Assembly (NCBI GenBank): GCA_040376425.1
Contig: JBEIQS010000004.1
Coordinates: forward strand, 53,617 to 117,616
Direction: 5' to 3'
From: Alphaproteobacteria bacterium
Lineage (GTDB): Bacteria > Myxococcota_A > UBA796 > SXON01
Length of the DNA stretch: 64,000 bases
Shown piece after piece: positions 3,230 through 45,174 of the stretch; position 1 is the first letter of the stretch; every line of letters starts with the position of its first letter. Below the pieces are notes generated by a model that did not search any database, had not been told where the DNA came from, and saw only the letters and a list, made by a program, of their open reading frames with translations. The translations under genes were made by a program, and so were the position numbers.

Positions 3230-4192
3230 GTGGCGACGCTCGATTTTGTAGGAATCGAAAAATCCTACGGTGCGGTGCGGGTCTTGCATCGGGTAGATCT
3301 GAGTGTGGCCGACGGTGAGTTTTTGGTCCTCGTTGGCCCCTCTGGCTGTGGAAAGAGTACCTTGCTCCGCAGTATCGCCGGGTTGGAAGAGATCACCTCG
3401 GGTGAGCTGCGTATCGACGGCAAGCGGGTGAATGACACTGCTCCCGCCGATCGCGACGTGGCCATGGTCTTCCAGAGCTATGCCCTGTATCCGCACATGA
3501 CCGTGCGCGAGAACATGGCCTTCGCGCTGCGGTTGAAGAAACATCCAGAGACGGATTCGCGGGTGGCCGAGGCCGCGCGGATGTTGGGGCTGGAGCCTCT
3601 CCTGGACCGGCTGCCCAAGGAGTTGTCCGGTGGTCAGCGCCAGCGGGTTGCGATGGGGCGTGCGATTGTTAGACGTCCAAAGGTGTTTCTTTTTGATGAG
3701 CCCCTCTCCAACCTGGATGCTGCGCTTCGGCAGCAGCTCCGGGTGGAGATCAAGCGCCTGCAAAGCAGCCTGCGTACCACCACGGTCTATGTCACGCACG
3801 ACCAGATCGAGGCGATGACCCTGGCGGATCGGATTGTGGTCCTGCAAGGGGGCGTGTTGCAGCAGGTGGGCAGTCCGGATGAGCTGTACAACAACCCTGC
3901 CAATCGATTCGTGGCCGGTTTTATTGGTAGTCCCTCCATGAACTTTTTGGAGAAGGTGGAAGCCGGCGTGGTGGTGGGGGTGCGGCCCAATGATGTGGTG
4001 TTGGGGGCGGGGCCGCTGAAGGGGCAGGTCGAGGTGGTGGAGCGTATGGGCTTTGAGTCCATGGTGCACCTGCGGGTGGGGGGAGAGGCGCTTGTGGCGC
4101 GGGTGGAAGGTGAGCCCCCCACGGGAGAGGTGGCGCTGCGCCTGGAGCGATTTTATCGCTTTGATCCAGCCACCGGGGCCAGGCTCCGTTGA
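3230..4192 (+). CDS. sugar ABC transporter ATP-binding protein (MalK/UgpC family)
   Basis: Walker [11 protein letters not shown]-loop [14 protein letters not shown], signature [14 protein letters not shown], Walker [14 protein letters not shown]-loop TTVYVTHD, plus a C-terminal MalK-type regulatory domain. Confidence 0.9.
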
Positions 4193-6261
4193 TCGCGCTC
4201 CTGACGACCGCCTGGGCCGGGGAGCTGACCCTTTGGCATGCCTATCGGGCGGAAGAAAAGCAGGCGATCGAGCAGGCCTGTGCGGTGTGGCAGGCCGCCC
4301 ATCCGGGCACCACCGTGCTGCCGGTGGCGGTGCCCTACGAGGGGCTGGCGTCCAAGCTGGAAGCCGCCATCCCCCGCGGAAATGGCCCCGATCTTTTCAT
4401 CTTCGCGCATGAGCGCATTGCGACGTGGTCCCAGGCGGGGGTTATCCTTCCGGTGCAGGCGCTGGATGGCGCGATGGGCAGTGCCACCACCGCCCTGACC
4501 TGGGAGCGCAAGACCTGGGGCTGGCCACTCTCCGTTAAAAGCCTTGCGCTATTTTACAATAAAAAGATGGTGGAGGTGCCACCGGGCAACGAGACGGCGC
4601 TGTGGGAGCTGGTGCAGCGCCCCAAGGCCGAGGGCAGCTTCTGGCTGGCCTATGAGGTGGCCAGCGCCTACCACGCGGCGCCTTGGATGCACGGCTACGG
4701 CGGCGGGGTCTTTCAGGGAGAGAAGGTCGCGCTGGATCGCGCCGAAAACGTGCTTGCGCTGGATCTGATTCAGCGTCTGGCCGTGGAGGTGGTGCCCCAG
4801 GAGCCCACCGGAGCGCTGGTGACCCAGCTCTTCAACGAGGGCCGGGCGGCGATGGTGATCAATGGGCCATGGATGCTGGGGGAGATCACCGGTGTGGACT
4901 ACGGGGTGGCCTCGCTTCCCGTGCTTTCTTCCGGACTTCCTGCTGCGCCCTACCTGAGTGTGGAGGCTGCCTTTTTGAGCCGGGACAGTGCCGAGGCGCG
5001 GGAGCTGGGCGCCTGGCTGGCGGGGCCCGAGGCCGCGAAAATCCGGCAGGATGTGGGCCGCCAGATCGTGGCGCGCGATGATGTGGAGAGTAGCGACCCG
5101 GTGCTGAACGCCTTCCGCAAGCAGGCGACGGTGGCGGTGCCGATGCCGGTCCGCTCGGAGATGGGGCAGACCTGGGAACCCTTGGCGCGCAGCCTGCGTC
5201 GCCTCACCCGGGGTGCGGTAACCCCAGAGGTGGCGGCCGCAGAGGCGCAGAGCACCTACGCGATCCTTTCGCGCCCGGTGCCGCCCCCCGCAGCGCCTTG
5301 GCCCTATGTGGGGCTGCTGGCGGCGGTGCTGGTGGCTGCGGCGGTGTGGTTTGTGCGGGAGCTGCGGGCGGTCAAGCTTCGGCCCTGGGCCTTTGCCTAC
5401 CTGTATGTTGCGCCGGCCTTTGGGGCGATGACCCTTCTGACTGTCCTTCCATTTGTAGTCGGGGCTACAATTTCCCTGTTTGAGCAGGAGGGGCAGGCGT
5501 GGACCTTTGTGGGGATCTCCAACTTCCTGGACATCCTGCTGGCACGGGATTTTCCGCTCTCTTCGCCGCTCTCTTTTGTGTCCACGCTGACCGTTACCAT
5601 CCTGTGGACGGTGAGCAATGTGCTGCTGCATGTGGGCATCGGGGTGGCACTGGCGATGATGCTGCGGGAGCCCTGGGTGCGGATGCGGGGGGCCTTCCGG
5701 GCGCTGCTGATCCTGCCCTGGGCGATTCCTTCTTACATTACTGCTTTGATTTGGAAAAACCTGTTTCATCAACAGTTTGGTGCGATCAACGCCCTGCTGC
5801 GGCTGTTAGGGGCTGAGCCGATCTCGTGGTTTGCCAACTTCTCTACGGCCTTCGCGGCGAATCTGACGACGAACACCTGGCTTGGCTTTCCCTTTATGAT
5901 GGTGGTGACGCTCGGTGCCCTTCAGAGCATCCCCCGGGATCTGGAGGAGGCGGCCGAGGTGGACGGGGCGGGAGCCTGGGATCGTTTCCGGCATGTGACC
6001 CTTCCATTGTTGAAACCTGCACTTTTGCCCGCGGTCATCCTGGGCAGTGTGTGGACCTTCAACATGTTCAATATCATCTACCTGGTCAGCGGCGGTGAGC
6101 CGGACGGCAGTACCGACGTACTGGTTTCTCAGGCCTACCGATGGGCATTTACGCGCGGCCACCGCTATGGCTACGCGGCCGCCTACGCGGTGATCATCTT
6201 TGGGGTGCTGGTGATCTACGGTCGTCTTGCCAATCGTCTGGCAGGGAAGAAGGTAGTTTGA
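4189..6261 (+). CDS. fused periplasmic solute-binding (MalE-like) domain plus ABC permease (MalF-like)
   Basis: ORF 690 aa. The N-terminal ~350 aa resemble maltose-binding protein (LTLWHAY..., [30 protein letters not shown]). The C-terminal half has 6+ TM helices and the EAA loop [27 protein letters not shown] start overlaps the malK-like stop. Confidence 0.8.
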
Positions 6262-6277
6262 TGAAGGGGAAACGTCC

Positions 6278-7126
6278 ATGAGATCTCCCTCCACCGTCAA
6301 AGTGGTCGCGGTCCACAGCCTGCTCCTCCTCTTCACCGTCGCCACTCTTTTCCCGGTGTTGTGGGTGGTGAAGATGGCGCTGGAGCCCGGGCAGGGGATG
6401 GCGGTGAGTATCAATCCCTTCCCCACCGAGATCACCTTTGCCAATTTTGAGGCGGTGCTCTTCACCAAAGCGGGTGATGGAAGTTGGTTATTTGGGCGGC
6501 AGCTCCTGAACTCCCTGGTGGTTTCCACCGTGACGGCTGCCGTGGGTGTGGGCCTGGCGGCTACGGCCGGCTACGCACTGTCCCGTTGGAATTTCCCGGG
6601 GCGCGATCGGGCCATGGCCATCTTCCTGCTGACGCAGATGTTCCCCGGGGTGGTGATGTTGATCCCGCTGTACATCCTGCTGGATGAGCTGGGGCTCTTG
6701 GACTCGATGGCGGGGTTGATCCTGGTCTATTCCACCACGTCGGTACCTTTTGCCACCTGGAACCTGAAGGGCTACTTCGACACGATTCCAAAAGATCTGG
6801 AAGAAGCAGCGATGTTGGATGGTGCCTCGCGCTGGGTCACCTTCACGCAGGTGATCCTGCCGCTCGCCCGCCCGGCGCTGGTGGTGACCGCGCTGTTCGC
6901 CTTTATGACCGCCTGGAACGAGTACATTCTCGCCGCCACCCTGATGGGCGACGAGCGCGGCTTCACCCTTCCGGTGGTCCTGAAGGGCTACGTTGGCGAG
7001 TTTGGTGCGCAGTGGGGCTATTTTGCGGCAGGCGCGATCCTGGTCAGCCTGCCCGTCACCGCTCTCTTCTTCATGCTGCAGCGCTTCCTGGTGGAAGGGC
7101 TTACCGCCGGCAGCGTCAAGGGCTGA
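6278..7126 (+). CDS. sugar ABC transporter permease (MalG-like)
   Basis: ORF 282 aa, 6 TM helices, EAA loop LEEAAMLDGASRWVTFTQVILPLARP. Confidence 0.85.
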   Translation: MRSPSTVKVVAVHSLLLLFTVATLFPVLWVVKMALEPGQGMAVSINPFPTEITFANFEAVLFTKAGDGSWLFGRQLLNSLVVSTVTAAVGVGLAATAGYALSRWNFPGRDRAMAIFLLTQMFPGVVMLIPLYILLDELGLLDSMAGLILVYSTTSVPFATWNLKGYFDTIPKDLEEAAMLDGASRWVTFTQVILPLARPALVVTALFAFMTAWNEYILAATLMGDERGFTLPVVLKGYVGEFGAQWGYFAAGAILVSLPVTALFFMLQRFLVEGLTAGSVKG

Positions 7127-7151
7127 GCGGGGGAGGGACTGACACCCCCGC
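7127..7151. terminator. candidate hairpin between convergent genes (GCGGGGG-N11-CCCCCGC)
   Basis: 7-bp GC stem read directly from the sequence, immediately after the permease stop and before the stop of the convergent 7175.. gene. There is no U-tract. Confidence 0.3.
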
Positions 7152-7174
7152 CGCTCCGGCGCCGCATCAAAAGC

Positions 7175-8440
7175 CTACTTCATCGCCGCTGCAAGAGCAT
7201 CCAGGGTGCTGGTCGCGATCCCGAAGACAGGCCCGCCCGCCTCCTCGCGCGCCACACGCAGGTCGCCCACCTGCTGGCCGATGTAGATCACGGTCTGCTT
7301 CTCCTCTCCCAGCTTGATCCGCAGGGTGCCCCAGGATTCGGCTGGGGCGGGCAGGTCGGCCTTGCTGCGGTCCACCGCGGCGCCCTCCAGCACCTCCAGG
7401 AAGGCATCCACACTCACCGGCTTGCCCTCGCTGCTGGCCCAGGTACCTTCCTGGCGTGTGTATTTTGCACTACGGTCTCCCAGCTTCAGGTCCAGCGCTT
7501 CGATCAGGTAGCGGTTGTCATTGAACAGCTTGCTGCTCTCCCAGCCGCTCAGGCGCAGCAGGTCCAGCGCCTTGCTGTCCACCCGCACCAGGCCTCCGCT
7601 GCCGGTCTGTGCGGCCGCTCCGTCCATATCACGTGTTCCAAAGCGCAGACTCTGGGTGGCATCTCCGCCCTCCACGCTCAGGACTGCCGTGGGGTTCACC
7701 AGGCCCAGGGTGGCCGGGTCCTGTCCGTCCAGGAAGTCTACAGCCTTCAGGGCGGCGGCACCGCTCAACCACTCGGTGACCTTTTCTTTGTCGGCGCGCG
7801 GCCCGTTGTCCCCGATCCACCAACCATCTCCCTCTTTGCGCAGCGTCAGGCTCTGACCGTCCACCTCGATCCGGATCCGGCGCGCGTCGTAGGCGGACAC
7901 CGACCACAGCTCCTTGCTGCGGAAGTCCATCACCTGTCGGCCCGCCAGCTCCGAGAGTCGGGAGGTGGCCAACACCGGAAGGGACGTTTCGTCCTTCTTT
8001 ACATAGCTCTTGTAGCCCACCGGCGTATCCCGGCCGACAAAGACAGAAAACGTCGTACCGTCGGCCTTGGCCAGCACCACCTCGGTCCGGGCGGTCTCAT
8101 CCAGACCGTAGTCGGCCAGGGCGCCACCCAGGGTGCGCTCTTCGACTTTGGTGCTTGAAAAGCGCTCGATAATCTCTTCTACCTTGCGCGCTTCCACAGA
8201 AAGCTCGCGCGGCGACACCATTTTCCAGTTCTCGCCATCCTTTTCAAAACGCAGCTTCCCCGACGCGCGGCGCAGCTCCAGGCTCTGGATGTCCTTGTTT
8301 TCAAAGGAAAAGAGCTTGCTGGTTACCGGTGCGTCCGGATCGCTGGACGTCTCCTCTTCTGCGCCACCCTCTTTTTCCTGGTAGCGCTTGACCAGGACGG
8401 GTACGAGCAGGACCAACAGGACGATGGTCAACACGGTCAT
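7175..8440 (-). CDS. DUF4340-like secreted/anchored protein
   Basis: Inner part of ORF 7175..8647(-). Start chosen at MTVLTIVLLVLLVPVLV (N-terminal anchor); ATG 8473 is the alternative. Shows the repeated beta-rich modules with W/G motifs typical of DUF4340 proteins. Family call by eye only. Confidence 0.5.
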   Translation of the reverse strand: MTVLTIVLLVLLVPVLVKRYQEKEGGAEEETSSDPDAPVTSKLFSFENKDIQSLELRRASGKLRFEKDGENWKMVSPRELSVEARKVEEIIERFSSTKVEERTLGGALADYGLDETARTEVVLAKADGTTFSVFVGRDTPVGYKSYVKKDETSLPVLATSRLSELAGRQVMDFRSKELWSVSAYDARRIRIEVDGQSLTLRKEGDGWWIGDNGPRADKEKVTEWLSGAAALKAVDFLDGQDPATLGLVNPTAVLSVEGGDATQSLRFGTRDMDGAAAQTGSGGLVRVDSKALDLLRLSGWESSKLFNDNRYLIEALDLKLGDRSAKYTRQEGTWASSEGKPVSVDAFLEVLEGAAVDRSKADLPAPAESWGTLRIKLGEEKQTVIYIGQQVGDLRVAREEAGGPVFGIATSTLDALAAAMK

Positions 8441-8475
8441 CAGACGGTTCTGGCCTTCCACGATACACCCCATGC

Positions 8476-8503
8476 TTGACAGATGCGGCCGGGTGCCTAT
8501 CCT
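8476..8503 (+). promoter_or_regulatory. candidate sigma70-type promoter of grpE (TTGACA-N16-TATCCT)
   Basis: TTGACA at 8476-8481 and TATCCT at 8498-8503. GGAAAGAGG follows at 8511-8519 and the ATG at 8527. Confidence 0.3.
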
Positions 8504-8526
8504 CCCGCGAGGAAAGAGGCAGCGCC

Positions 8527-9090
8527 ATGAGTGGGAATGGACAAGATGTGGAGAATGAAGCCGCCGAGCAGGGGGCCAATGTGGTCGACCTTCCGGTAGA
8601 CGAAGAAAAGGCCGCCCTGCAGCAGCGGGTGAACGAGCTGGAAGCACGGCTGCGCACGGTGAGTGCAGCCTTCAAAGAGAAACAGGATGAGATCCAGGCC
8701 ACCAAGGAGCGCCTCGCGCGCCACGCGATGGTGGAGGAGGAGATCCGTCGGGGGGAAGTGGTCACTTCGCTCTTTGAGCCGGTGGAGAACCTGAACCGCT
8801 CCATCCAGGCGAACCGCGCCCTGCCGGAGGAGACGGTCACCGGTCTGCGGATGATCCACACCGAATTTATGGCTGCGCTCAAAAAGCTGGGCCTGGAAGA
8901 GACCTCGGGTGTGGGTGCGGTCTTTGATCCCAACAACCACGAGGCCATTGCGACGCAGCCGGTGGTGGATCCCGAGCAGGACAACAAGATCATCGCCGTC
9001 TATTCCACGGGCTACCGCATTGGAAAGCGCTTGGTTCGCCCGGCCCGGGTGGTGATCGGCCGCTACGAAGAGCCCTCGGCCGAAGCCTGA
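8527..9090 (+). CDS. grpE: nucleotide exchange factor GrpE
   Basis: Coiled-coil N-terminus (LQQRVNELEARLRTVSAAFKEKQDE) and a C-terminal beta-domain FDPNNHEAIATQP...YRIGKRLVRPARVVI characteristic of GrpE. Confidence 0.9.
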   Translation: MSGNGQDVENEAAEQGANVVDLPVDEEKAALQQRVNELEARLRTVSAAFKEKQDEIQATKERLARHAMVEEEIRRGEVVTSLFEPVENLNRSIQANRALPEETVTGLRMIHTEFMAALKKLGLEETSGVGAVFDPNNHEAIATQPVVDPEQDNKIIAVYSTGYRIGKRLVRPARVVIGRYEEPSAEA

Positions 9091-10328
9091 AGCTCCGGCC
9101 AGCCCCAACCCGGCTGGTCGGGTGGGAGCAGCGCCAGACACAGGCTGCCTTCGGGGAGTGACTCTGCCAGCTTGGTAGCAGGATTTCCCGCCACGCCGCC
9201 GGGATCCTGGAGCGGTTGGCACAGCACCACCGCGATGGGCAGGCCCGGGCTGCGCGCCAGGGCCGCCGCGGCGTCCTGTACTTCCTGAAGATCCGCGTCG
9301 GCGCACAACCAGCCCTGAACCCCGGTGGGCAGCACCTGCTCGCCCACCAGGAGGACGCGGTGGCTGTGCAGACGATCGAGCAGCTCTGCGGCTGAAATGC
9401 CGCGAAGGATGCTCGGACCGACGATGGGCGGCAGGCCCGCAACCTGGACCGGCAGCGGCCGCAGCGTTGCCGGCAGGCGCGCGGGGCGGCGCATCCACAA
9501 ACCACCCAAAAGACCAAGAACAAAGGTGATTCCCAGCGCAAGGGGCCGATGTGGCGCCGCCTGCGGGCTCTCCATGGGGACGGGGACCGGTGGCGGAGGG
9601 GTGGGCACTGGGGGCGGAGGGGACTCTGGTGGCGGGGTCGGGGCGGTGGGCGGCGTGGGGGCGGTGGGCGGGCCGATCACTTCGGGGGGGCTGAGGCTGG
9701 CGGTGAAGGAGGTGTTTTCGCTCTTTCCCTGCAACACGTCGATCTGTGCAAAGCGCAGGGGCGGGGCAGCGGGCCAGCTCAGCTCGCCCAATTGCCGGTG
9801 GCTGCCGTCGCCTGCGTTCAACACCAGCTTCAGACGATCGCCCGGTGCCACCCCGGCGCAGCCGAACTCCTCGTCGTTGCGGGTGGCGTCGGGAAAGCGA
9901 CCGTCGTTCCGGCATGCAAGCTCTACGCGGCCCCGCTCCCCTTCGAGGGCGAGCACTGGCGTGCCCCCCTCTCCGGGCACCTGCACCCGTACCAGGATTT
10001 GAGGCGCGGAAACACTGGCGGTCGCCGTTTTTGCCTCCGGCAGCGCAACGTCGCAAGCAATGTCCTTTTTTCCGAGCAGCAGGCTTTGGGGGGCCGTACA
10101 GGGAAGCTCGATCAACCGACCGTCACGGAGCAATGCCAGGCGGTCGCCCGAGGGAATCTCGCAGGTCCAATGCCCGTCCGGGGCGGCATCGGGCGCCTGT
10201 CCCCCGTCGTTGCACGCGGTGGCCTCCAGCACGCCGTCCCGCTCGCCCAAGAGCAGGAGCGAGCGGCTGCCCTCTGCCCCCGCCACCAGCACCGGCGCTG
10301 CCGCCCAGGCTGCCAGAATCCAGACCAT
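9063..10328 (-). CDS. hypothetical single-pass membrane protein (Cys-rich ectodomain, Pro-rich linker, TM, cytoplasmic domain)
   Basis: ORF 9063..10406(-). Start chosen at MVWILAAWAAAPVLVAGAEG (signal peptide). Has a PPTAPTPPTAPTPPPESPPPPVPTPPPPVPVP linker and a TM helix LALGITFVLGLLGGLWM. Its composition is normal, unlike the overlapping R/G/P-rich shadow ORFs. Confidence 0.45.
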   Translation of the reverse strand: MVWILAAWAAAPVLVAGAEGSRSLLLLGERDGVLEATACNDGGQAPDAAPDGHWTCEIPSGDRLALLRDGRLIELPCTAPQSLLLGKKDIACDVALPEAKTATASVSAPQILVRVQVPGEGGTPVLALEGERGRVELACRNDGRFPDATRNDEEFGCAGVAPGDRLKLVLNAGDGSHRQLGELSWPAAPPLRFAQIDVLQGKSENTSFTASLSPPEVIGPPTAPTPPTAPTPPPESPPPPVPTPPPPVPVPMESPQAAPHRPLALGITFVLGLLGGLWMRRPARLPATLRPLPVQVAGLPPIVGPSILRGISAAELLDRLHSHRVLLVGEQVLPTGVQGWLCADADLQEVQDAAAALARSPGLPIAVVLCQPLQDPGGVAGNPATKLAESLPEGSLCLALLPPDQPGWGWPELQASAEGSS

Positions 10329-10389
10329 TCCTTCTGCTATCCGCTTCGATCCGATCGCGCCGCTGCTCCGTACCGCGGCAATGGAAGGC

Positions 10390-10650
10390 TCAGCGTCGCA
10401 GCTCAAAATCCGGCCAGTCGCCCTCGGCGGCCGGGCTCTGCTCGACGCTGCTCACCCGGGCCAGCGGGGGCCCGTGGTGGCACCATGCGATAAATTCCGG
10501 GCTGCGTTCGCCGGAGACCACGGCCTCCACCGAGCCGTCCGGCAGGTTGCGAACCCAGCCACGCAGCCCCAATCGTTGGGCTACCTCGTGGGCGGACGCC
10601 CGAAACCACACCCCCTGCACCTTGCCTCGAACCACCAGTCGCAGCGCCAT
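10390..10650 (-). CDS. acyP: acylphosphatase
   Basis: 86-aa C-terminal part of ORF 10390..11151(-). [45 protein letters not shown] matches the V-x-G-x-V-Q-G-V-x-F-R and GWVRN acylphosphatase signatures. Confidence 0.8.
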
Positions 10651-10749
10651 TGTAGCTCCCCCTACACCGTCTATCCTGCTTTCCCGCCTGGATCCCCCCA
10701 CCCGGCCTCGGTCTGTGCTATAGTCGAGCTTCCGAGTGGTGGTCTGAGC

Positions 10750-11295
10750 GTGCAGGAGGAGGATGACAGCAGCCTGATACGCCGTATGGCGGCTGGGGAC
10801 CGCGCCGCCTTGGGCATGCTCTATGACCGCCAGGCACCGTTGCTGCTGGCAGTGACCCTCAAATTGGGCTTTGACCGCGAAGCTGCCGAGGATTTGGTCC
10901 ATGACCTGTTCCTCGAAGTATGGAGGGCTTCCGCGGACTATGATCCCGCCCGTGGCGCGGTGCGCACCTGGCTTTTGGTACGGTTGCGCAGCCGTGCGTT
11001 GGACCGGCGGCGTTCCGGTCATGCCCGCTACATCGTGGCGGTGGAGGATCTGCAGACGGTGGATCGGCCGCAGGTGCCGCAGGAAGATCCCGTACTTTCC
11101 TCGGATCGGGCGGCGGTGGTGCGGGAGATGGATCAGCTCCCGCCTGAGCAACGGCAGGTGCTGGAGTTGGCCTATTTTGAGGGGCTCTCGGCGGCCGAGA
11201 TTGGGAAAAGGGTGGGAGTTCCTACCGGAACGGTGAAGTCGCGGCTGGCATCAGGACTGGGCAAGCTGCGGCAGGCGCTGGGGGGTGGGCCATGA
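10750..11295 (+). CDS. ECF-type RNA polymerase sigma-70 factor
   Basis: Inner part of ORF 10060..11295, with a GTG start at 10750. Region 2 is [19 protein letters not shown]...[17 protein letters not shown]; region 4 is [41 protein letters not shown]. Confidence 0.85.
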
Positions 11296-35523: not shown

Positions 35524-35856
35524 TCAGCCCGGTGGCCAGGAAAAGGGGCGTCCCCCCAAAAGATGCAGGTGGAGGTGGAAGACGGTCTGGCCCGCTCCCG
35601 CACCGTTGTTGATGTTCACCCGGTAGTCCACCAAGCCTTCCTGCTTGGCGACCAACTGCACGGTCTGCAAGAGCCGCCCCAGCAGCGCCCCGTCCTCTGG
35701 CGCGGCGGCGGAGAGCTGGGGGATCGGGCGCTTGGGAATCACCAGGATGTGGACGGGGGCCTGGGGGTGGATGTCCCGAAAGGCCAGCGTCTCCTCGTCT
35801 TCATAGACGATGGAGGCGGGGATCTGGCGGGCGATGATCCGCTCGAAGAGGGTCAT
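35524..35856 (-). CDS. HIT-family (histidine triad nucleotide-binding) protein
   Basis: ORF 110 aa. IVYEDEETLAFRDIHPQAPVHILVIPK and QTVFHLHLHLLGG (HxHxHxx motif). Confidence 0.9.
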   Translation of the reverse strand: MTLFERIIARQIPASIVYEDEETLAFRDIHPQAPVHILVIPKRPIPQLSAAAPEDGALLGRLLQTVQLVAKQEGLVDYRVNINNGAGAGQTVFHLHLHLLGGRPFSWPPG

Positions 35857-36824
35857 CGGCGCACCACAGGGGGCTTCACCTCGGAGTTGATCTCGGTGGT
35901 GACCGCACCGTGGCCCATGGCCATCAGCTCGCGCATGGTGCGCTGAGCGCCGTCCACCGAGCCATCCAAGAAGATCACATTGCCCTTGCCATTTTCAGCA
36001 AGGTGCTTCAGCGACTCCGTCCACATGGAGAAGAGGATGAAGGAGGCGTCCAGGTCGGCGGCCTTCATCTCCTGTGCGACTTCGCTCATACCTTTGGCAA
36101 CTTCGCGGCGGAACAGAGCGATACCCTGGCCGCGCAGGCGCAGGGCCTCGCGCTCGGCCTCGGCGGAGATCTTGATGGCGTTGCCCTCGGCTTCGGCCTG
36201 CTTGGTCTTGGTGATCAACAGGGCCTGACCTTCATTTTCGGCGGCCGCCTTCAGGTTGGAGGAGGCGACGACCTGGGCCATGGAGCGGATGATCGCATCG
36301 TCAAAGGTAATGTCGTTCATCTGGAGATCGAGCAGGTGATAGCCCCACTCTTCCAGACTTTGGTCAAGCTGGCTCTTGACCGCCTCTACGATCTCGCGGC
36401 GCAGCGACAGAATCTCGGACTGCCGCTTGGTGGCCACGAAGGCGCGCACCGAGCCCTCCACCGTGCGCACCAGCGTCTGCATGAAGCTGCGCTCGTCGAT
36501 GAACTTGAAGGCCACGTTCTTGATGACCTCTTCGTCCTGGTTCAGCACCGCGTAGAGCAGCATCGCCTTGAAGCCGACGTTGGCCTGGTCCACGGTGATA
36601 GCCTGAAAGGCGAGCTCTACCGAGCGATTCTGGATGGAGATGCGGCGGCTGACCACCTCCAGGAAGGGGATCTTGAAGTTGAGGCCCGGCCACATGGGAC
36701 GCCGATACTTTCCGAACATGGTCACCACGCCCACGGTGCCCTGTTGGATGGTGGTGAAGCTGCCCAGAGCCACGGCGCCTGCGCCTAAGGAGCCCATACA
36801 GACCAGACTGAGGAGTGCGTCCAT
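35853..36824 (-). CDS. SPFH/band-7 (stomatin/prohibitin-like) protein
   Basis: Inner part of ORF 35853..37061(-), starting at MDALLSLVCMGSLGAGAVAL (TM). TIQQGTVGVVTMFGKYRRPMWPGLNFKIPFLE and the coiled-coil AAAENEGQALLITKTKQAEAEGNAIKISAEAEREAL follow. ATGA overlap with the HIT gene. Confidence 0.85.
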   Translation of the reverse strand: MDALLSLVCMGSLGAGAVALGSFTTIQQGTVGVVTMFGKYRRPMWPGLNFKIPFLEVVSRRISIQNRSVELAFQAITVDQANVGFKAMLLYAVLNQDEEVIKNVAFKFIDERSFMQTLVRTVEGSVRAFVATKRQSEILSLRREIVEAVKSQLDQSLEEWGYHLLDLQMNDITFDDAIIRSMAQVVASSNLKAAAENEGQALLITKTKQAEAEGNAIKISAEAEREALRLRGQGIALFRREVAKGMSEVAQEMKAADLDASFILFSMWTESLKHLAENGKGNVIFLDGSVDGAQRTMRELMAMGHGAVTTEINSEVKPPVVRR

Positions 36825-36930
36825 AATTTCTTTCCCTTCGGGGTCGGGAGGAAGATCCCGGCCACAGAAAGCCTCATTATCCTGTCTGGGCGGCGCTGCC
36901 TGTGCTTGCAGGTCGCTTTTGACGCGCCAC

Positions 36931-37788
36931 TTATCGATTTTCGGTGGTGCGGCGCCGAGGGTGGAAGCCGGAACGGTCCCCCCGAAGGCGGGTGCCATGG
37001 GCGCGGTCCTCCTCCCACAATACCCGGCTTTCAGGCCAGGGAAGCCGGGTTCCAGCCGCAAAAGTGGCCGTCGCCAGCGCGTCCGCCTCCACAGCCCGGG
37101 GAGCCACCACGGTCACCGCTCGCAGCCGCCGCGCCTCTGCACCCGAGCGTGCGTCACGGATGTGGCCGGGTTGCCATTGCGGGCTGGAGGTGGAAAGGGC
37201 CGCGTTGTGGAGGGAAAGATCCACCTGGTAGGCGTAGAGATCCACGGTGACCGGCCAGCCCTTCCGCCCGGGAGCGTCTCCGCGCGCCCCGATGTCGCCC
37301 GCCGCATCGATCAGAAAGTGCTGCTCCCCGAGCGCTTCCAGCCTCTCCACCGCGCGATCCACCAGAAAACCCTTCAGGATCCCGCCCAAATCCACCTTGC
37401 CTCCCTCCACCCACCGCAGACCCGCCTCTGCAAACACCTGTCCCCCACGCCAGGTCAGCGAAAAGGCTCCCGCCGACAGCAGCCGCAGCCGCTCCGCTAC
37501 GACAAACAACTCCTCCGCCTCCGGTGGAAAAGCAAGCTTCTCCCCGGCATTCATTCGCCCAGTCAGACTTTGGGGCCGCCACTCGGAGAGCTGGGCTTCC
37601 CAGGCTTCGATCTCCGCAAAAGCTGCATTGATATTGGCCTCTGCGTTGGGCTGCTCCGAGTCCACGCTGATCCCCACCAGGGTACCCATGGCCGGTCGGG
37701 TCTGGTGCAGAAACGCTGCGTGCACCATTGCCGAAAAAAGCAGGATCACGGCCGCCACATCTCCCAAAGGGCCGCGAAGCTCATCCAC
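36931..37788 (-). CDS. apbE: ApbE-family FAD:protein FMN transferase
   Basis: ORF 285 aa. N-terminal anchor VAAVILLFSAMV, AMGTLVGISV, S.W...S......N, VDLGGILKGFLVDRA, FLIDAGGDI-like (FLIDAAGDIG) and ALSTSS are ApbE hallmarks. Confidence 0.8.
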   Translation of the reverse strand: MDELRGPLGDVAAVILLFSAMVHAAFLHQTRPAMGTLVGISVDSEQPNAEANINAAFAEIEAWEAQLSEWRPQSLTGRMNAGEKLAFPPEAEELFVVAERLRLLSAGAFSLTWRGGQVFAEAGLRWVEGGKVDLGGILKGFLVDRAVERLEALGEQHFLIDAAGDIGARGDAPGRKGWPVTVDLYAYQVDLSLHNAALSTSSPQWQPGHIRDARSGAEARRLRAVTVVAPRAVEADALATATFAAGTRLPWPESRVLWEEDRAHGTRLRGDRSGFHPRRRTTENR

Positions 37789-38225
37789 AAGAGCCCGATC
37801 AACAGCATCGCATGGGCCGGAATAAAAAGGACGGAGAAGGCGGTACTCACATAGACCACCAGCCAGGGCAGTGCGATCTGCACCCCCATCGCCAGGATGG
37901 TCAGTGCGGTGATCACCGCACGGCGACGCACCGGGTCGCTGCCCAGGTTGTAGAGGTGCGCCACCACCAGGAAGGTCACCGGCTCGGTGAACAGGTGAAA
38001 GTGCGTTAACTCCAGGATCTGCCGATAACTTTTGGGATAGACCATCCCCGATTCATCGCCGGTCCAGTAGGTGCCGGCCGTCGCCGCACTGATCCCCATT
38101 CCATCGCCATGCAGCAGCGCCGCAGTCAATAATCCGCCCGCCGAAAACAATAAAAAGGAGGAATAGACCAGCTTGCCGCCCACGTCCAGCCGCCGCAGCA
38201 TGTTCTTTCCGGCAAAATCCTTCAT
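37746..38225 (-). CDS. hypothetical 4-TM membrane protein with intramembrane His residues
   Basis: ORF 159 aa with four hydrophobic helices. His at LLHGDG, THFHLF, VVAHLY and IPAHAM. ATGA overlap with the FMN-binding protein stop, and a 3' overlap with the apbE start. Confidence 0.5.
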   Translation of the reverse strand: MKDFAGKNMLRRLDVGGKLVYSSFLLFSAGGLLTAALLHGDGMGISAATAGTYWTGDESGMVYPKSYRQILELTHFHLFTEPVTFLVVAHLYNLGSDPVRRRAVITALTILAMGVQIALPWLVVYVSTAFSVLFIPAHAMLLIGLLWMSFAALWEMWRP

Positions 38226-38743
38226 GGCAGGCCCAGAAAGTCGTGCATCAGCAGGGTATCCCGACGCACCCCCACGGTGATGGCGCGGGAGGAGATTGTA
38301 GCCCCCGATACAAACTGGATGTCGCGGCCCAGCTTCAGCGAAGAGTCCGCATTTTTCCCCACAAACTGCCGTCGGAAGCCCTCGCCCTTCACCCCATCGC
38401 CGTAGGCCTCGCGGTACTCGGTGATCTCCACCCGAAGCACCGATCCCCGAGGATCAAAGAGCACAGCATAGCTGATCGGCTCGTGTTGGCCAAGCTGCGC
38501 ATCCAGGATGGCATAGGCCACCGGCTCCCCCTTCACCCGGCCCACCCAGACTTCATAGCTGGACTGCGGTGGCGCATAGCCCAGCCGCTCTTTCATCTCT
38601 GGTGGCGGCGTATAGGAGATCACCTCCACCTCGGCGGTGGGGAAAAAGCTTTGTACCAGTGCTTCGCGGGTGTAGATGGTGTAGGCGCTTGCGGAGGAGG
38701 GCCAGAGCACGCACAGAGCCAGCAGCAGGATCAATGGCTTCAT
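38222..38743 (-). CDS. secreted FMN-binding-domain protein (predicted ApbE flavinylation substrate)
   Basis: ORF 173 aa with signal peptide MKPLILLLALCVLWPSSASA. The C-terminal FVSGATISSRAIT matches the [ST]GA[ST] flavinylation motif of NqrC/RnfG-type FMN_bind domains. Confidence 0.7.
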   Translation of the reverse strand: MKPLILLLALCVLWPSSASAYTIYTREALVQSFFPTAEVEVISYTPPPEMKERLGYAPPQSSYEVWVGRVKGEPVAYAILDAQLGQHEPISYAVLFDPRGSVLRVEITEYREAYGDGVKGEGFRRQFVGKNADSSLKLGRDIQFVSGATISSRAITVGVRRDTLLMHDFLGLP

Positions 38744-38827
38744 GCCCGGCGCTTAACCGGTCTTTCTGGAATTGAAAATCAATATCAGAACTGGGCTCCA
38801 GCATGGGTGGGTCGGTTAGGAAGGCAG

Positions 38828-39691
38828 ATGCTCGCACCCCGCACCCGCATCGCTGTGGTCTCCCCCTCTGGGGTCTTCACCCCCGCCCGCCTGCACGCGG
38901 GCATGGCACTTTTGCAGGAGTGGGGCTATCAACCCGAGCTTTTGCCGGTCAGTCGAGCGGTGGTGGAGGGGGCGTCGCACCGCTACCTCGCGGGCCAGGA
39001 CAGTGCCCGACTTGCAGAGCTTCAACAGGCTTTTTCCGGCGACTACGGCGCGGTTTGGATGGCACGCGGCGGCTACGGTCTGGCGCGCCTGCTGCCCTCC
39101 TTGGACTTCCGTCGGATGGCGAAAGTGCCCTTTTTTGGCTTTTCGGATGGCACGGTTGTGCTCAATGCCTTGGCGCGACGGGGCTTTCCCGCTGTGCACG
39201 GCCCGGTACTGCAGACGCTGGCCGATCATTTGGACGATGGCAGTCGCTGCGCTCTGCGGACATTTTTGTCCGGTGAAAAGGTTCCCTTGGAGGGAGAGTT
39301 CTGGGTGGAGGGGGAGGCCGAGGGACCGGTGGTGGGGGGCAACCTCTGCGTGTTGGCTTCGCTTTGTGGCACCGAGGGCCAGGTGAATGCCTACGACGCC
39401 CTTTTGTTGTTGGAGGAGCTGAACGAGGCCCCCTACAAGGTGGACCGGATGTTGACCCAGCTTGCGCAGGCCGGGGTTTTTGAAGGGCTCCGCGGTGTGC
39501 TGCTGGGCGAGTTTTTGAACTGTCAGGCGCCGGGCGGGGCGGGCTACACGGTAGAAGATGTCTTGCGTGAGCGTTTGGAGCCCTTGGGAGTGCCGATTTT
39601 GGCTGGACTTCCGGTGGGCCATGGGGCCAGAAATTGGCCGCTGAAGCTGGGGACGGCCCGGCTGTGGGAGGGGGGGGTGGTGGAGGTGTGA
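38828..39691 (+). CDS. LD-carboxypeptidase (S66, LdcA-like)
   Basis: Inner part of ORF 38243..39691, ATG at 38828. IAVVSPSG, WMARGGYG, FFGFSDGT (Ser nucleophile), LLLEELNEAPYKVDRMLTQL and GLPVGHG are S66 motifs. Confidence 0.8.
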   Translation: MLAPRTRIAVVSPSGVFTPARLHAGMALLQEWGYQPELLPVSRAVVEGASHRYLAGQDSARLAELQQAFSGDYGAVWMARGGYGLARLLPSLDFRRMAKVPFFGFSDGTVVLNALARRGFPAVHGPVLQTLADHLDDGSRCALRTFLSGEKVPLEGEFWVEGEAEGPVVGGNLCVLASLCGTEGQVNAYDALLLLEELNEAPYKVDRMLTQLAQAGVFEGLRGVLLGEFLNCQAPGGAGYTVEDVLRERLEPLGVPILAGLPVGHGARNWPLKLGTARLWEGGVVEV

Positions 39692-43636: not shown

Positions 43637-44362
43637 TCAGAATGGAAAACCAAGGATTACGCGGGCAGAGATTGGACCGCGCTCGGACTCCTCCCCGTAG
43701 CTTGCCACCGGAACCATCAGCGTACTGGCCATCCACCAATGTTGCTGGTTGAAGGCCAAGGCTGGCCCAAGGGCCAGCTCTCCGCCTTCAAAGCCCTGGT
43801 CCGGGGACAGGTGGTTCTCGTTTTCCAGCTCCAGCCCCAGGTGTACACCCTTGAAGACGCGCACCGACACCCCTAATTTGTTCTCGATCGCCGCCTCCAT
43901 TTCCAGATCGGGCTCGCCCGTCTCGTACTCCCACTCCACCTCGCCCACCAGGTTGTAGGCCACCAGAAGCGGGCCCTTGTCCAGATCCAGGATCACCTTG
44001 GCTTCCAGCTCGGTTTCCGAAGGCCCCGCCGACACTTCTCCATACAGAGCAAGCCCCACCGGTGCCACCGCGCGTCGCAGAAGATTCAGCTTCCACTCGG
44101 AAGAAATCCCGTCAAAGGACGCTCCAGAACGATCCGCAGACCAGTTGATGTAGAAGGCGGTAAGGAGGCGGTTGGAGATCGCCCACTCCAGCTCCATGCG
44201 GTTGGAGAGGGCAAGACCCTGGCGATCGGGCAGAAAGGTCACCGTCGCCCAGGGCTCCAGCTCGCGGGCTTCCTTCGGCATCACCAGGGAGTCGTAGGTA
44301 TGGGTAAAACGACGTTCGTTGGCGGACACATCGGGGAGCATGGAGAGAAGCAGTGGCAGCAT
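43637..44362 (-). CDS. hypothetical outer-membrane beta-barrel-like protein
   Basis: ORF 241 aa with alternating amphipathic strands and a terminal ...ILGFPF (C-terminal Phe). Confidence 0.45.
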   Translation of the reverse strand: MLPLLLSMLPDVSANERRFTHTYDSLVMPKEARELEPWATVTFLPDRQGLALSNRMELEWAISNRLLTAFYINWSADRSGASFDGISSEWKLNLLRRAVAPVGLALYGEVSAGPSETELEAKVILDLDKGPLLVAYNLVGEVEWEYETGEPDLEMEAAIENKLGVSVRVFKGVHLGLELENENHLSPDQGFEGGELALGPALAFNQQHWWMASTLMVPVASYGEESERGPISARVILGFPF

Positions 44363-44379
44363 GTATGATCCTTGAGAAT

Positions 44380-44398
44380 GATTTTGATTTTCATTATC
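44380..44398. promoter_or_regulatory. candidate Fur box GATTTTGATTTTCATTATC
   Basis: 15/19 identity to the classical Fur consensus GATAATGATAATCATTATC, by manual alignment. It lies in the only strongly AT-rich intergenic stretch (44363-44410), between the divergent OM-barrel gene and the rhomboid gene. Confidence 0.4.
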
Positions 44399-44469
44399 AT
44401 GATATCACGCGGACATGCCGCCGGCAAGCACCCGCTTCCCCCCACTATCCCCGTGCTTAAAATCCCCCG

Positions 44470-45174
44470 ATGTTCCCCATCCGCGACAACATCCAGAGCC
44501 GGCGATGGCCGGTGGTCAACCTGCTGATCATCCTGGTGAACGTCGCCGTTTTTGTAAACTATTTCAGCATGAGTGAGCGCGCCCTGGACCAGTTCATCCT
44601 GAGCTGGTCGGTGGTGCCCGAACGTTTCTGGGGCGCGTTGGACCGCCCGGCGCTGCTGCCGCTCCAGGTTGCCACGCTGTTCTCTGGGATGTTCATGCAC
44701 GGAGGGCTGCTGCACATCGCCGGAAACATGTGGTTTTTATGGATCTTCGGGGATAATATCGAAGATCGGCTCGGGCACCTGCGCTACCTGTTGTTCTACC
44801 TGGCCACTGGACTCATCGCCACCGCGTCCGAGCTTTTTGCCTCTCCCCACAGTGCAATTCCCATGCTCGGAGCCTCGGGCGCGGTGGCCGGGGTGCTGGG
44901 GGCCTACCTGTGGTGGTATCCGCGGGCGCGGGTGCAGACCCTGGTGCCGATTTTCATCTTTCTGCAGTTTATGGAACTTCCTGCGGTTCTTTTTCTGGGC
45001 CTTTGGTTCGTCATGCAGATTCTCGGTAGCCTGGGCGGGGAGGGTGGTGTGGCCTGGTATGCGCACATATTCGGCTTTATAGGTGGGCTATTGCTCTCCA
45101 TGCTCGCCACCCGACCGCCGCCTCGACCCATTCGCCCCCTCCCCGCATCGCGGAACATCTACCGACGGCGTTGA
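44470..45174 (+). CDS. rhomboid-family intramembrane serine protease
   Basis: ORF 234 aa. FMHGGLLHIAGNMWFLWIFG (HxxxN), GASGAVAGVLGAY (catalytic Ser) and YAHIFGFIGG (catalytic His). Confidence 0.85.
   Translation: MFPIRDNIQSRRWPVVNLLIILVNVAVFVNYFSMSERALDQFILSWSVVPERFWGALDRPALLPLQVATLFSGMFMHGGLLHIAGNMWFLWIFGDNIEDRLGHLRYLLFYLATGLIATASELFASPHSAIPMLGASGAVAGVLGAYLWWYPRARVQTLVPIFIFLQFMELPAVLFLGLWFVMQILGSLGGEGGVAWYAHIFGFIGGLLLSMLATRPPPRPIRPLPASRNIYRRR

Follow-up and report, generated by a model that had tools for sequence, protein, structure and literature searches.

A conserved FMN_bind/PF27139/ApbE gene trio as a candidate Fur-controlled flavin redox module for iron acquisition

Introduction

Which membrane protein exchanges electrons with a secreted flavoprotein when no Nqr, Rnf, NosR or reductase genes adjoin its gene, and what purpose does the exchange serve? 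This question is raised by three minus-strand genes within a 64,000-nucleotide (nt) stretch of contig JBEIQS010000004.1 (hereafter the window; gene coordinates count from its first letter). The trio encodes an FMN_bind protein, a protein with four predicted transmembrane helices (the 4-TM protein) and an ApbE enzyme, that is, a flavin adenine dinucleotide (FAD):protein flavin mononucleotide (FMN) transferase. ApbE-flavinylated periplasmic proteins are a recently recognised and widespread means of extracytosolic electron transfer, and most of their membrane partners and purposes are unassigned. An earlier note on this DNA had taken the trio for a minimal trans-membrane redox relay, had placed its membrane component in no nameable family and had named neither electron donor nor acceptor.

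On balance, and by a narrow preference, we favour the view that the trio may be a Fur-repressed, iron-starvation-induced periplasmic flavin redox module serving iron acquisition; the module is probably a ferric reductase. The evidence that carries this view is the conservation of the three genes as a unit, a predicted Fur operator at their promoter, and the iron-uptake genes that accompany distant homologues of the membrane protein.

Conservation of the trio as a unit

The three genes were confirmed at the coordinates proposed earlier (Table 1). The start codon of the 4-TM gene overlaps the FMN_bind stop codon (ATGA) and the GTG start of the ApbE gene falls within the 4-TM gene, with a 43-nt overlap; this overlap of start and stop codons suggests translational coupling. 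A genome-wide search of the approximately 7-Mb, 94% complete genome found that its sole FMN_bind gene and its sole ApbE gene both belong to the trio. The ApbE enzyme is therefore dedicated to this FMN_bind protein, and the genome has no Rnf or Nqr complex. The families of the neighbouring genes likewise bore out the earlier statement that Nqr, Rnf, NosR and reductase genes are absent from the immediate surroundings.

We compared 10 complete, close orthologous loci and a same-phylum sample of 18 strong matches from different families. The order FMN_bind, 4-TM, ApbE is kept in nine of the 10 orthologous loci, within unrelated flanks. The exception (L012:5200-6465) keeps the 4-TM and ApbE genes without an adjacent FMN_bind gene; an SGNH/GDSL-like hydrolase gene stands at the usual FMN_bind place, so that the substrate gene must be elsewhere or lost. 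Across the same-phylum loci, FMN_bind adjoins the 4-TM gene in all 18 and ApbE does so in 11, and a porin-like outer-membrane barrel of about 400-500 amino acids (aa) lies just upstream in 14. No membrane protein other than the 4-TM protein accompanies the flavoprotein in every case. In addition, ApbE and FMN_bind are fused in distant lineages, and a fusion of 4-TM and ApbE also exists.

An unbiased Pfam tally of the 139 genes flanking the 18 same-phylum loci found no conserved transporter or oxidoreductase; only FUR (3) and extracytoplasmic function (ECF) sigma domains (4) recur. The trio is one conserved unit, and it agrees with the idea of an extracytosolic module for flavin electron transfer that has a membrane partner of its own. 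In the window, a wider four-gene cassette is reduced to a form lacking the porin. The co-occurrence across genomes that the earlier note had proposed to look for was thus found, and its idea of a minimal relay survives as far as a conserved unit with its own membrane partner is concerned; the two-haem pattern considered below does not.

A predicted Fur operator and an iron-related gene context

The trio promoter carries a predicted Fur operator that is conserved among orthologous promoters. The Fur-like box reads GGAATTGAAAATCAATATC on the plus strand and GATATTGATTTTCAATTCC on the minus strand, matches the classical Fur box GATAATGATAATCATTATC at 14 of 19 positions, and ranks second among about 128,000 window positions. 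When orthologous loci of 6-16 kb were scanned, the best site of the locus lay 0-80 bp upstream of FMN_bind in eight of nine, often as two tandem boxes, and the top Fur-like site was found at the 5' end of the cluster in approximately 12 of the 18 same-phylum loci. Four FUR-family proteins are encoded in the genome.

Iron genes adjoin the module in all seven distant homologue loci, which include those of Ca. Nitrospira bockiana and Ca. Manganitrophus. These neighbours comprise fur together with FbpA/B/C-type ATP-binding cassette (ABC) transporter genes, FTR1, TonB-ExbBD, ferritin, or a TonB-dependent receptor with PepSY_TM; in one locus (L024) the ABC permease gene overlaps the 4-TM gene. FbpBC and FTR1 are ferric-iron importers in characterised systems. 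A likely physiological role for the module follows from this link between the membrane protein's family and iron-uptake genes. The donor and acceptor were left blank in the earlier note, which had missed both the Fur box and the iron-gene neighbourhoods. No iron transporter or fur gene flanks the trio in the window, and the iron link there rests on the Fur-like box and on the distant homologues. A role of this kind has precedents, since flavinylation clusters have been implicated in iron reduction and assimilation (PMC8238504), and the Caulobacter PepSY/DUF2271/DUF4198/ApbE cluster CC_3059-3063 is induced 12-44-fold by iron limitation (PMC3751524).

A homologue of the porin-like partner (E 3e-104) is encoded on another contig of the same genome, within a second operon fronted by a Fur box (L064, Table 1). 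Besides the porin-like partner, this operon encodes a di-haem oxidoreductase (DHOR), an imelysin (Peptidase_M75), a small protein weakly matching P460, and a MopE-repeat protein of 1122 aa with 12 MopE metal-binding repeats, whose gene follows the porin-like gene. The DHOR and imelysin families are associated with iron uptake. Two large Cu-binding_MopE-repeat proteins (L001:444-2732 and L001:9302-11899) also flank one orthologous trio, and MopE-repeat proteins may thus be recurrently associated with genes of the cassette.

Table 1. Positions of the trio, its predicted operator and other Fur-box features.
Feature	Location	Strand	Details
FMN_bind gene	38222-38743	-	173 aa
4-TM gene	37746-38225	-	159 aa
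ApbE gene	36931-37788	-	285 aa, read from GTG 37788
Fur-box-like operator	38768-38786		25-43 bp upstream of FMN_bind ATG
Strongest Fur-box cluster of the window	44374-44404		up to 16/19, overlapping boxes
Second Fur-box-fronted operon (L064)	own genome, contig C245:46200-60858; genes 4324-11294		box L064:4285-4315

The predicted flavoprotein and its flavin transferase

The FMN_bind protein matches PF04205 (E 1.3e-7, 32.6 bits against a cut-off of 22) and begins with a predicted Sec-type signal peptide, MKPLILLLALCVLWPSSASA, followed by YT. NCBIfam RnfG models gave weak matches, far under their cut-offs. The best solved relative is RnfG (PDB 9ERI_G, E 7e-8), in which the stretch ITGSTITSKAV aligns with VSGATISSRAI of the window protein, SGAT standing opposite TGST. 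We take this stretch to be the location of the flavinylated threonine of RnfG, and because it aligns with VSGATISSRAI we place the predicted acceptor at Thr149 (codon 38297-38299) within VSGATISSRAIT.

The site context is D141-IQFV-SGAT149-ISSR, with the motif S146-G-A-T149. SGAT is kept in 13 of 14 aligned orthologues, and the remaining one has SGST. Based on these features, the protein is a predicted secreted, RnfG/NqrC-like substrate of ApbE, and the signal peptide and [ST]GA[ST] motif noticed earlier are both upheld. The published flavinylation motif is the seven-residue D-x-x-[ST]-G-A-[ST], with aspartate at -6 from the acceptor (PMC12052999). In the window protein, position -6 is glutamine, and a conserved aspartate (D141) is found at -8 throughout the FMN_bind family of the trio. 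Replacement of the motif aspartate had only minor effects in one test protein (PMC12052999).

The ApbE protein matches PF02424 (E 4.6e-31, 108.7 bits against a cut-off of 25.6), and the solved ApbE entries 5MGY, 4XDT and 1VRM match it at E 7e-9 to 7e-8. Its mature length is approximately 250 aa, compared with 325-369 aa in the matched solved chains. Members of the ApbE family carry an N-terminal MGT strand, D-x-G-G-I-x-KG, [ST]-[ST]-[SG] and D-A-L-[AS]-T-A; the window protein has MGT (residue 34), DLGGILKG (133), STSS (199) and EADALATA (234). Its earlier identification as an FAD:protein FMN transferase is therefore supported by family match, solved relatives and motifs alike. ApbE enzymes transfer FMN from FAD to a threonine or serine of the target in a reaction that depends on Mg2+, and an enzyme of this kind needs a signal peptide or lipoprotein signal to reach a substrate outside the cytoplasm. 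The N-terminus read from GTG 37788, MDELRGPLGDVAAVILLFSAMVHA followed by AF, resembles a Sec signal, with some uncertainty as to the start codon, and some ApbE orthologues have no clear hydrophobic N-terminus.

In some distant lineages the two proteins appear to be handled differently. Fused ApbE-FMN_bind open reading frames (ORFs) were found at L019:5504-6979, L020:4825-6324, L021:5688-7004, L023:5479-6954 and L024:5475-7004; they begin at the first ApbE strand without a signal peptide and carry an internal twin-arginine motif between the fused domains (SRRRFL, a hydrophobic stretch, then AxA). At L022:5329-7004 the genes are separate and encode an FMN_bind protein with a twin-arginine translocation (Tat) signal and a signal-less ApbE. 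These variants suggest flavinylation in the cytoplasm followed by Tat export, in the fused forms by means of an unusual internal Tat signal.

The 4-TM protein and the PF27139 family

The 4-TM protein can be assigned to the Pfam family PF27139 (Aq_1264_TM), for which no function has been assigned. A precomputed PF27139 match is present in all 80 of 80 homologues at 48-92% identity, one of which is 92% identical over its full length. Our own Pfam scan, with a release older than PF27139, gave no real match to the 4-TM protein, and an NCBIfam scan gave none. The membrane component therefore has a family name after all, which the earlier note could not supply, albeit that of a family without a function. 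A literature search for the namesake aq_1264 returned no match, and two flavinylation surveys do not list PF27139.

An exhaustive profile search recovered 446 PF27139 representatives at 50% clustering. Of 401 genomes sampled from the window's phylum, 130 carry the family, which also occurs in Nitrospirota (Ca. Nitrospira bockiana and Ca. Manganitrophus) and Acidobacteriota. Weaker PF27139-like matches (E 1e-16 to 1e-19), from transmembrane helix 2 (TM2) onward only, were seen at L054:6309-7364 and L055:6294-7433, within frames of 350-380 aa and with no FMN_bind or ApbE nearby; they appear to be a separate subfamily in another context.

The AlphaFold model of the 4-TM protein (predicted local distance difference test score, pLDDT, 89.6) has four long helices at residues 15-43, 67-93, 99-126 and 128-157, together with a short loop helix at 47-55. 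All four histidine motifs quoted earlier for this protein (LLHGDG, THFHLF, VVAHLY and IPAHAM) are present. The predicted topology is N-in/C-in, with charges that obey the positive-inside rule. The natural fusion P0170 (531 aa) joins a 4-TM domain to a fifth hydrophobic helix and then a full ApbE domain, and this order implies that the C-terminus of the 4-TM protein is cytoplasmic. Two further sequences, P0176 and P0188, appear to be read-through or low-complexity artefacts.

Residue conservation was computed on 130 diverse family representatives. The conserved motif of TM2 is E72-x-x-H75-x-H77 ... P82 ... H90, in which H75 and H77 are invariant (130/130), H90 is 92% conserved and E72 82%. Elsewhere, G56 and P120 exceed 90% and W121 reaches 81%. 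H39 is invariant in the window's subfamily only and is replaced by tyrosine in other subfamilies. Position 116, glutamine in the window, is histidine in 44% and aspartate in 20% of representatives and mostly glutamate, asparagine, glutamine or tyrosine in the others, and H138, the histidine of IPAHAM, is variable even among close orthologues. The histidines conserved across the family are thus H75, H77 and H90 only, all of them on TM2. The expectation that histidines at the helix ends would be conserved holds for these three throughout the family and for H39 within the subfamily, and fails for H138.

The invariant residues gather in the periplasmic half of TM2, and the pocket positions H39, W54, E81 and Q116 are subfamily-specific. 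Positions 39, 54, 81, 116 and 138 co-vary (mutual information with average product correction, phylogeny not controlled), and their helix register puts them level with H75 and H77, in the bundle's periplasmic half. This suggests, as a hint only, that they form one pocket whose lining has been remodelled between subfamilies.

Is the membrane protein a cytochrome?

The earlier note had proposed that the spacing of the histidines could ligate b-type haem(s), and had named cytochrome b561, MsrQ and DUF4405 as folds to look for. A Foldseek search of the 4-TM model against the PDB gave nothing below E=2. The top matches, MAPEG enzymes and rhodopsins, had TM-scores of 0.3-0.5 and represent generic helix bundles. 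Among the best 50 of 53 matches with E<=10 there was no structure of b561 or CybB, and FoxB (7ABW) was not matched either. PDB sequence and profile searches with the 4-TM protein gave no match. Pfam scans of 55 PF27139 members, even at E<=1, revealed no match to PF03929, PF16357, PF01794 or PF14358, no recurrent family and no b561 match. In addition, when the 4-TM family was compared by hhalign with an alignment of DUF4405 and with a PepSY_TM protein, the two profiles covered, the probabilities were 1% and 0.1%, respectively. The search for a known cytochrome fold was therefore negative by structure, sequence and family models, and for DUF4405 by hhalign as well. As judged by these searches, the 4-TM protein appears to lie outside the flavinylation-associated cytochrome families described in PMC8238504 and PMC11334425.

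The conservation pattern leads to a similar result. Four highly conserved histidines, as two bis-His haem b sites would need, were not found in the PF27139 representatives, and the variation of position 116 among His, Asp, Glu and Gln appears unusual for a haem axial ligand. The haem proposal, in its two bis-His form, is thus not borne out. H75 and H90 could nevertheless form two bis-His sites in a dimer, because 15 residues separate them along the same face of TM2. The ExxHxH signature and the His/Asp/Glu at position 116 point as much to a metal site as to a quinol site.

Comparison with known systems

The predicted module resembles known ApbE-linked iron clusters, but with what appears to be a new membrane partner. 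The PepSY-like/DUF2271/DUF4198/ApbE clusters likewise combine an ApbE-flavinylated periplasmic protein with a small membrane redox partner (PMC8238504), and share iron or Fur control, a link to iron assimilation and Gram-negative hosts (PMC8238504, PMC3751524). They differ in that their flavinylated substrate is DUF2271, whereas that of the trio is an RnfG-like FMN_bind protein, and the trio has no DUF4198. Its membrane protein belongs to PF27139, has no homology to PepSY_TM, and would bind haem only putatively; FoxB, by comparison, is a solved di-haem PepSY-like protein (PDB 7ABW) according to PMC11334425.

The clusters of MsrQ-like (PF01794), FMN_bind and ApbE genes in Actinobacteria also bring together FMN_bind, ApbE and a dedicated membrane protein, and some have been proposed as assimilatory iron reductases (PMC8238504). 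MsrQ-like proteins have six transmembrane helices, two bis-His haem sites and often a nicotinamide adenine dinucleotide (NAD)-binding domain, whereas the 4-TM protein has four helices, three conserved histidines on one helix and no cytoplasmic domain; we found no Pfam or fold similarity between the two. The DUF4405 and FezC b-type cytochromes, which are associated with ferrosomes and flavinylation and bind haem b (PMC11334425), share the iron connection with PF27139, but no homology, and have another histidine pattern.

RnfG and NqrC share with the trio's flavoprotein the FMN_bind domain, the threonine of the [ST]GA[ST] motif and the periplasmic location. They have an N-terminal membrane anchor, whereas the trio protein has a cleavable-looking signal peptide and its aspartate is shifted to -8. 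In contrast to the Rnf and Nqr systems, the trio has no genes for further Rnf or Nqr subunits in its vicinity, and its FMN_bind gene is the only one in the genome.

Proposed mechanism and alternatives

Under iron sufficiency, Fur bound to the predicted operator would keep the operon repressed, and derepression would allow expression of the three translationally coupled genes. Sec would export the FMN_bind protein, and the co-encoded ApbE, acting in the periplasm, would transfer FMN from FAD onto Thr149. The flavoprotein would then bind the 4-TM protein from the periplasmic side, with the conserved YW/YY-R-G loop and the E72/H75/H77 pocket as the docking site. The 4-TM protein would join the flavin to the membrane quinone pool, possibly by way of a bound cofactor (haem b or a metal with histidine and carboxylate ligands) or of a quinol site located in the periplasmic leaflet, and the reduced flavin would reduce periplasmic Fe(III) species for iron import. 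All biochemical steps of this mechanism we infer from genomic evidence.

Several points weigh against this proposal. No iron transporter, fur gene or porin was found beside the trio in the window or in most loci of the subfamily. The predicted Fur box has only 14 of 19 matches, and AT-rich promoters in GC-rich genomes favour such sites. The aspartate at -8 instead of the canonical -6 is a slight deviation of the predicted flavinylation motif, and the signal peptide of ApbE is only plausible and not obvious in some orthologues. The 4-TM protein has no detectable similarity to known membrane cytochromes, which leaves its cofactor only putative, and a two-haem trans-membrane relay within one monomer is unlikely because the three conserved histidines are all on one helix. 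Finally, the importers encoded near the distant homologues fit Fe(II) oxidation no less than Fe(III) reduction.

The last of these points raises the question of direction. The unit could work in the opposite sense, with Fe(II) entering via the porin and electrons passing through flavoprotein and 4-TM protein to quinone, the resulting Fe(III) being taken up by FbpABC or FTR1. The nearest likenesses would be FtrB and FtrD in FtrABCD and EfeB in EfeUOB; in these systems an iron permease is accompanied by a redox protein in the periplasm and an electron-transfer protein in the membrane, and their expression varies with iron. They differ in relying on copper or haem proteins, a NapH-like polyferredoxin (FtrD) and Fe(II) oxidation, and none of their components is known to be homologous to the trio. 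The transporters of the distant loci, of FbpA/B/C-type ABC and FTR1 families, are in favour of this direction, FTR1-type permeases being coupled to periplasmic Fe(II) oxidation, and the usual outer-membrane partner is porin-like rather than a TonB-dependent receptor, which suits the small, diffusible Fe(II). Flavins at about -0.2 V, however, oxidise Fe(II) poorly unless the Fe(III) product is strongly stabilised, and many carriers appear to be aerobes, for which Fe(II) is scarce. Moreover, the characterised flavin/iron systems are all ferric reductases (PMC8238504 and its references). We therefore consider Fe(II) oxidation unlikely.

Other alternatives change the part played by the membrane protein or by the whole module. 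The 4-TM protein may itself bind metal, as an Fe(II) permease or a membrane iron site that takes over iron after its reduction by the flavoprotein, with the flavin obtaining its electrons by another route. E72-x-x-H75-x-H77 with H90 and the variable position 116 are typical metal ligands and unusual haem ligands, polar positions (39, 54, 81, 116 and 138) co-vary beside H75 and H77, histidines near both ends of TM2 could line a path, and fold and sequence searches gave no likeness to membrane cytochromes. The flavoprotein would still have to be supplied with electrons, and no further membrane protein is conserved alongside it; other phyla already encode dedicated iron importers beside the module, and a 159-aa four-helix bundle has no likeness to known metal permeases. 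This role seems to us quite improbable, and we give equally little credence to an iron-regulated module with no part in uptake, in which the flavoprotein is an iron-sparing substitute for a periplasmic cytochrome or Fe-S carrier in some other redox reaction. The replacement of iron proteins by flavoproteins under Fur control is an established theme, as with flavodoxin for ferredoxin, and no iron transporter occurs in the flanks of the window trio or of most same-phylum loci. Flavinylated proteins and cytochromes also appear interchangeable in some clusters, according to PMC8238504. Nevertheless, no periplasmic oxidoreductase candidate is co-conserved, and the module is embedded in iron-uptake operons of other phyla and, in L024, is translationally coupled to the ABC permease. 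Least credible of all, to a degree that we give it hardly any weight, is a 4-TM protein that merely assists ApbE, for example as an exporter of FAD for periplasmic flavinylation, and is itself no redox partner. Its linkage to ApbE is tight and includes the natural 4-TM+ApbE fusion; however, its tightest partner is FMN_bind (18/18) and not ApbE (11/18). The 4-TM gene is also kept where ApbE is signal-less and FMN_bind Tat-signalled; flavinylation there is presumably cytoplasmic and FAD export unneeded, and on this ground we rejected the FAD exporter role.

The iron-acquisition module that we favour can be extended to a broader reading, which we offer tentatively and, taken as a whole, regard as possible but doubtful. 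PF27139 would be a new, structurally unprecedented class of 4-TM membrane partner, about 160 aa long, for ApbE-flavinylated proteins, holding its cofactor or quinol by a single-helix E-x-x-H-x-H ... H signature, possibly as a dimer and possibly without haem. Together with a dedicated porin-like channel in the outer membrane, it would provide Fur-controlled reductive iron uptake that needs neither TonB nor siderophores, a route widespread among Myxococcota, Nitrospirota and other poorly studied phyla. In some lineages flavinylation would precede export: an ApbE without a signal, in some cases even fused ahead of an internal twin-arginine signal, would modify the flavoprotein in the cytoplasm, and Tat would then carry it out.

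Neighbouring genes and other features of the window

The genes around the trio are of housekeeping type and unrelated to it: SPFH/Band_7, HIT and YARHG genes lie downstream, and upstream, on the opposite strand, are genes for an LD-carboxypeptidase and AccD. Scans for promoters and terminators yielded no useful operon boundaries. The SPFH ORF at 35853-37061 (-) is overlong, its likely start being ATG 36824 behind a GGAAAG ribosome-binding site. The ORF at 38243-39691 (+), of 482 aa, is overlong as well; its LD-carboxypeptidase domains begin at residue 203, which places the true start near 38.8 kb, just past the Fur box. An ABC transporter at 3230-7126, 30 kb away, is of the generic SBP_bac_1 type and was not counted as iron-related.

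The strongest Fur-box cluster of the window (Table 1) lies between two divergent genes, 43637-44362 (-) and a rhomboid protease gene at 44470-45174 (+). The former encodes a 241-aa secreted protein without a Pfam family that ends in ...ILGFPF, like an outer-membrane barrel. It was considered as the missing porin and rejected, being unrelated to the porin-like partner (hhalign probability 0.2%), whose true homologue is on the other contig.

Conclusion

In conclusion, the module would add to extracytosolic flavin electron transfer a small class of membrane partner that has no solved or characterised relative. PF27139 occurs in about one third of the sampled genomes of the phylum and in Nitrospirota, including nitrite- and manganese-oxidising lineages, and the predicted Fur control together with the iron-gene neighbourhoods makes its function directly testable. 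If our reading is true, the three proteins would offer a minimal system for studies of electron transfer between a flavin and the membrane. It would also explain how many uncultured or little-studied diderm bacteria may acquire iron without siderophores.

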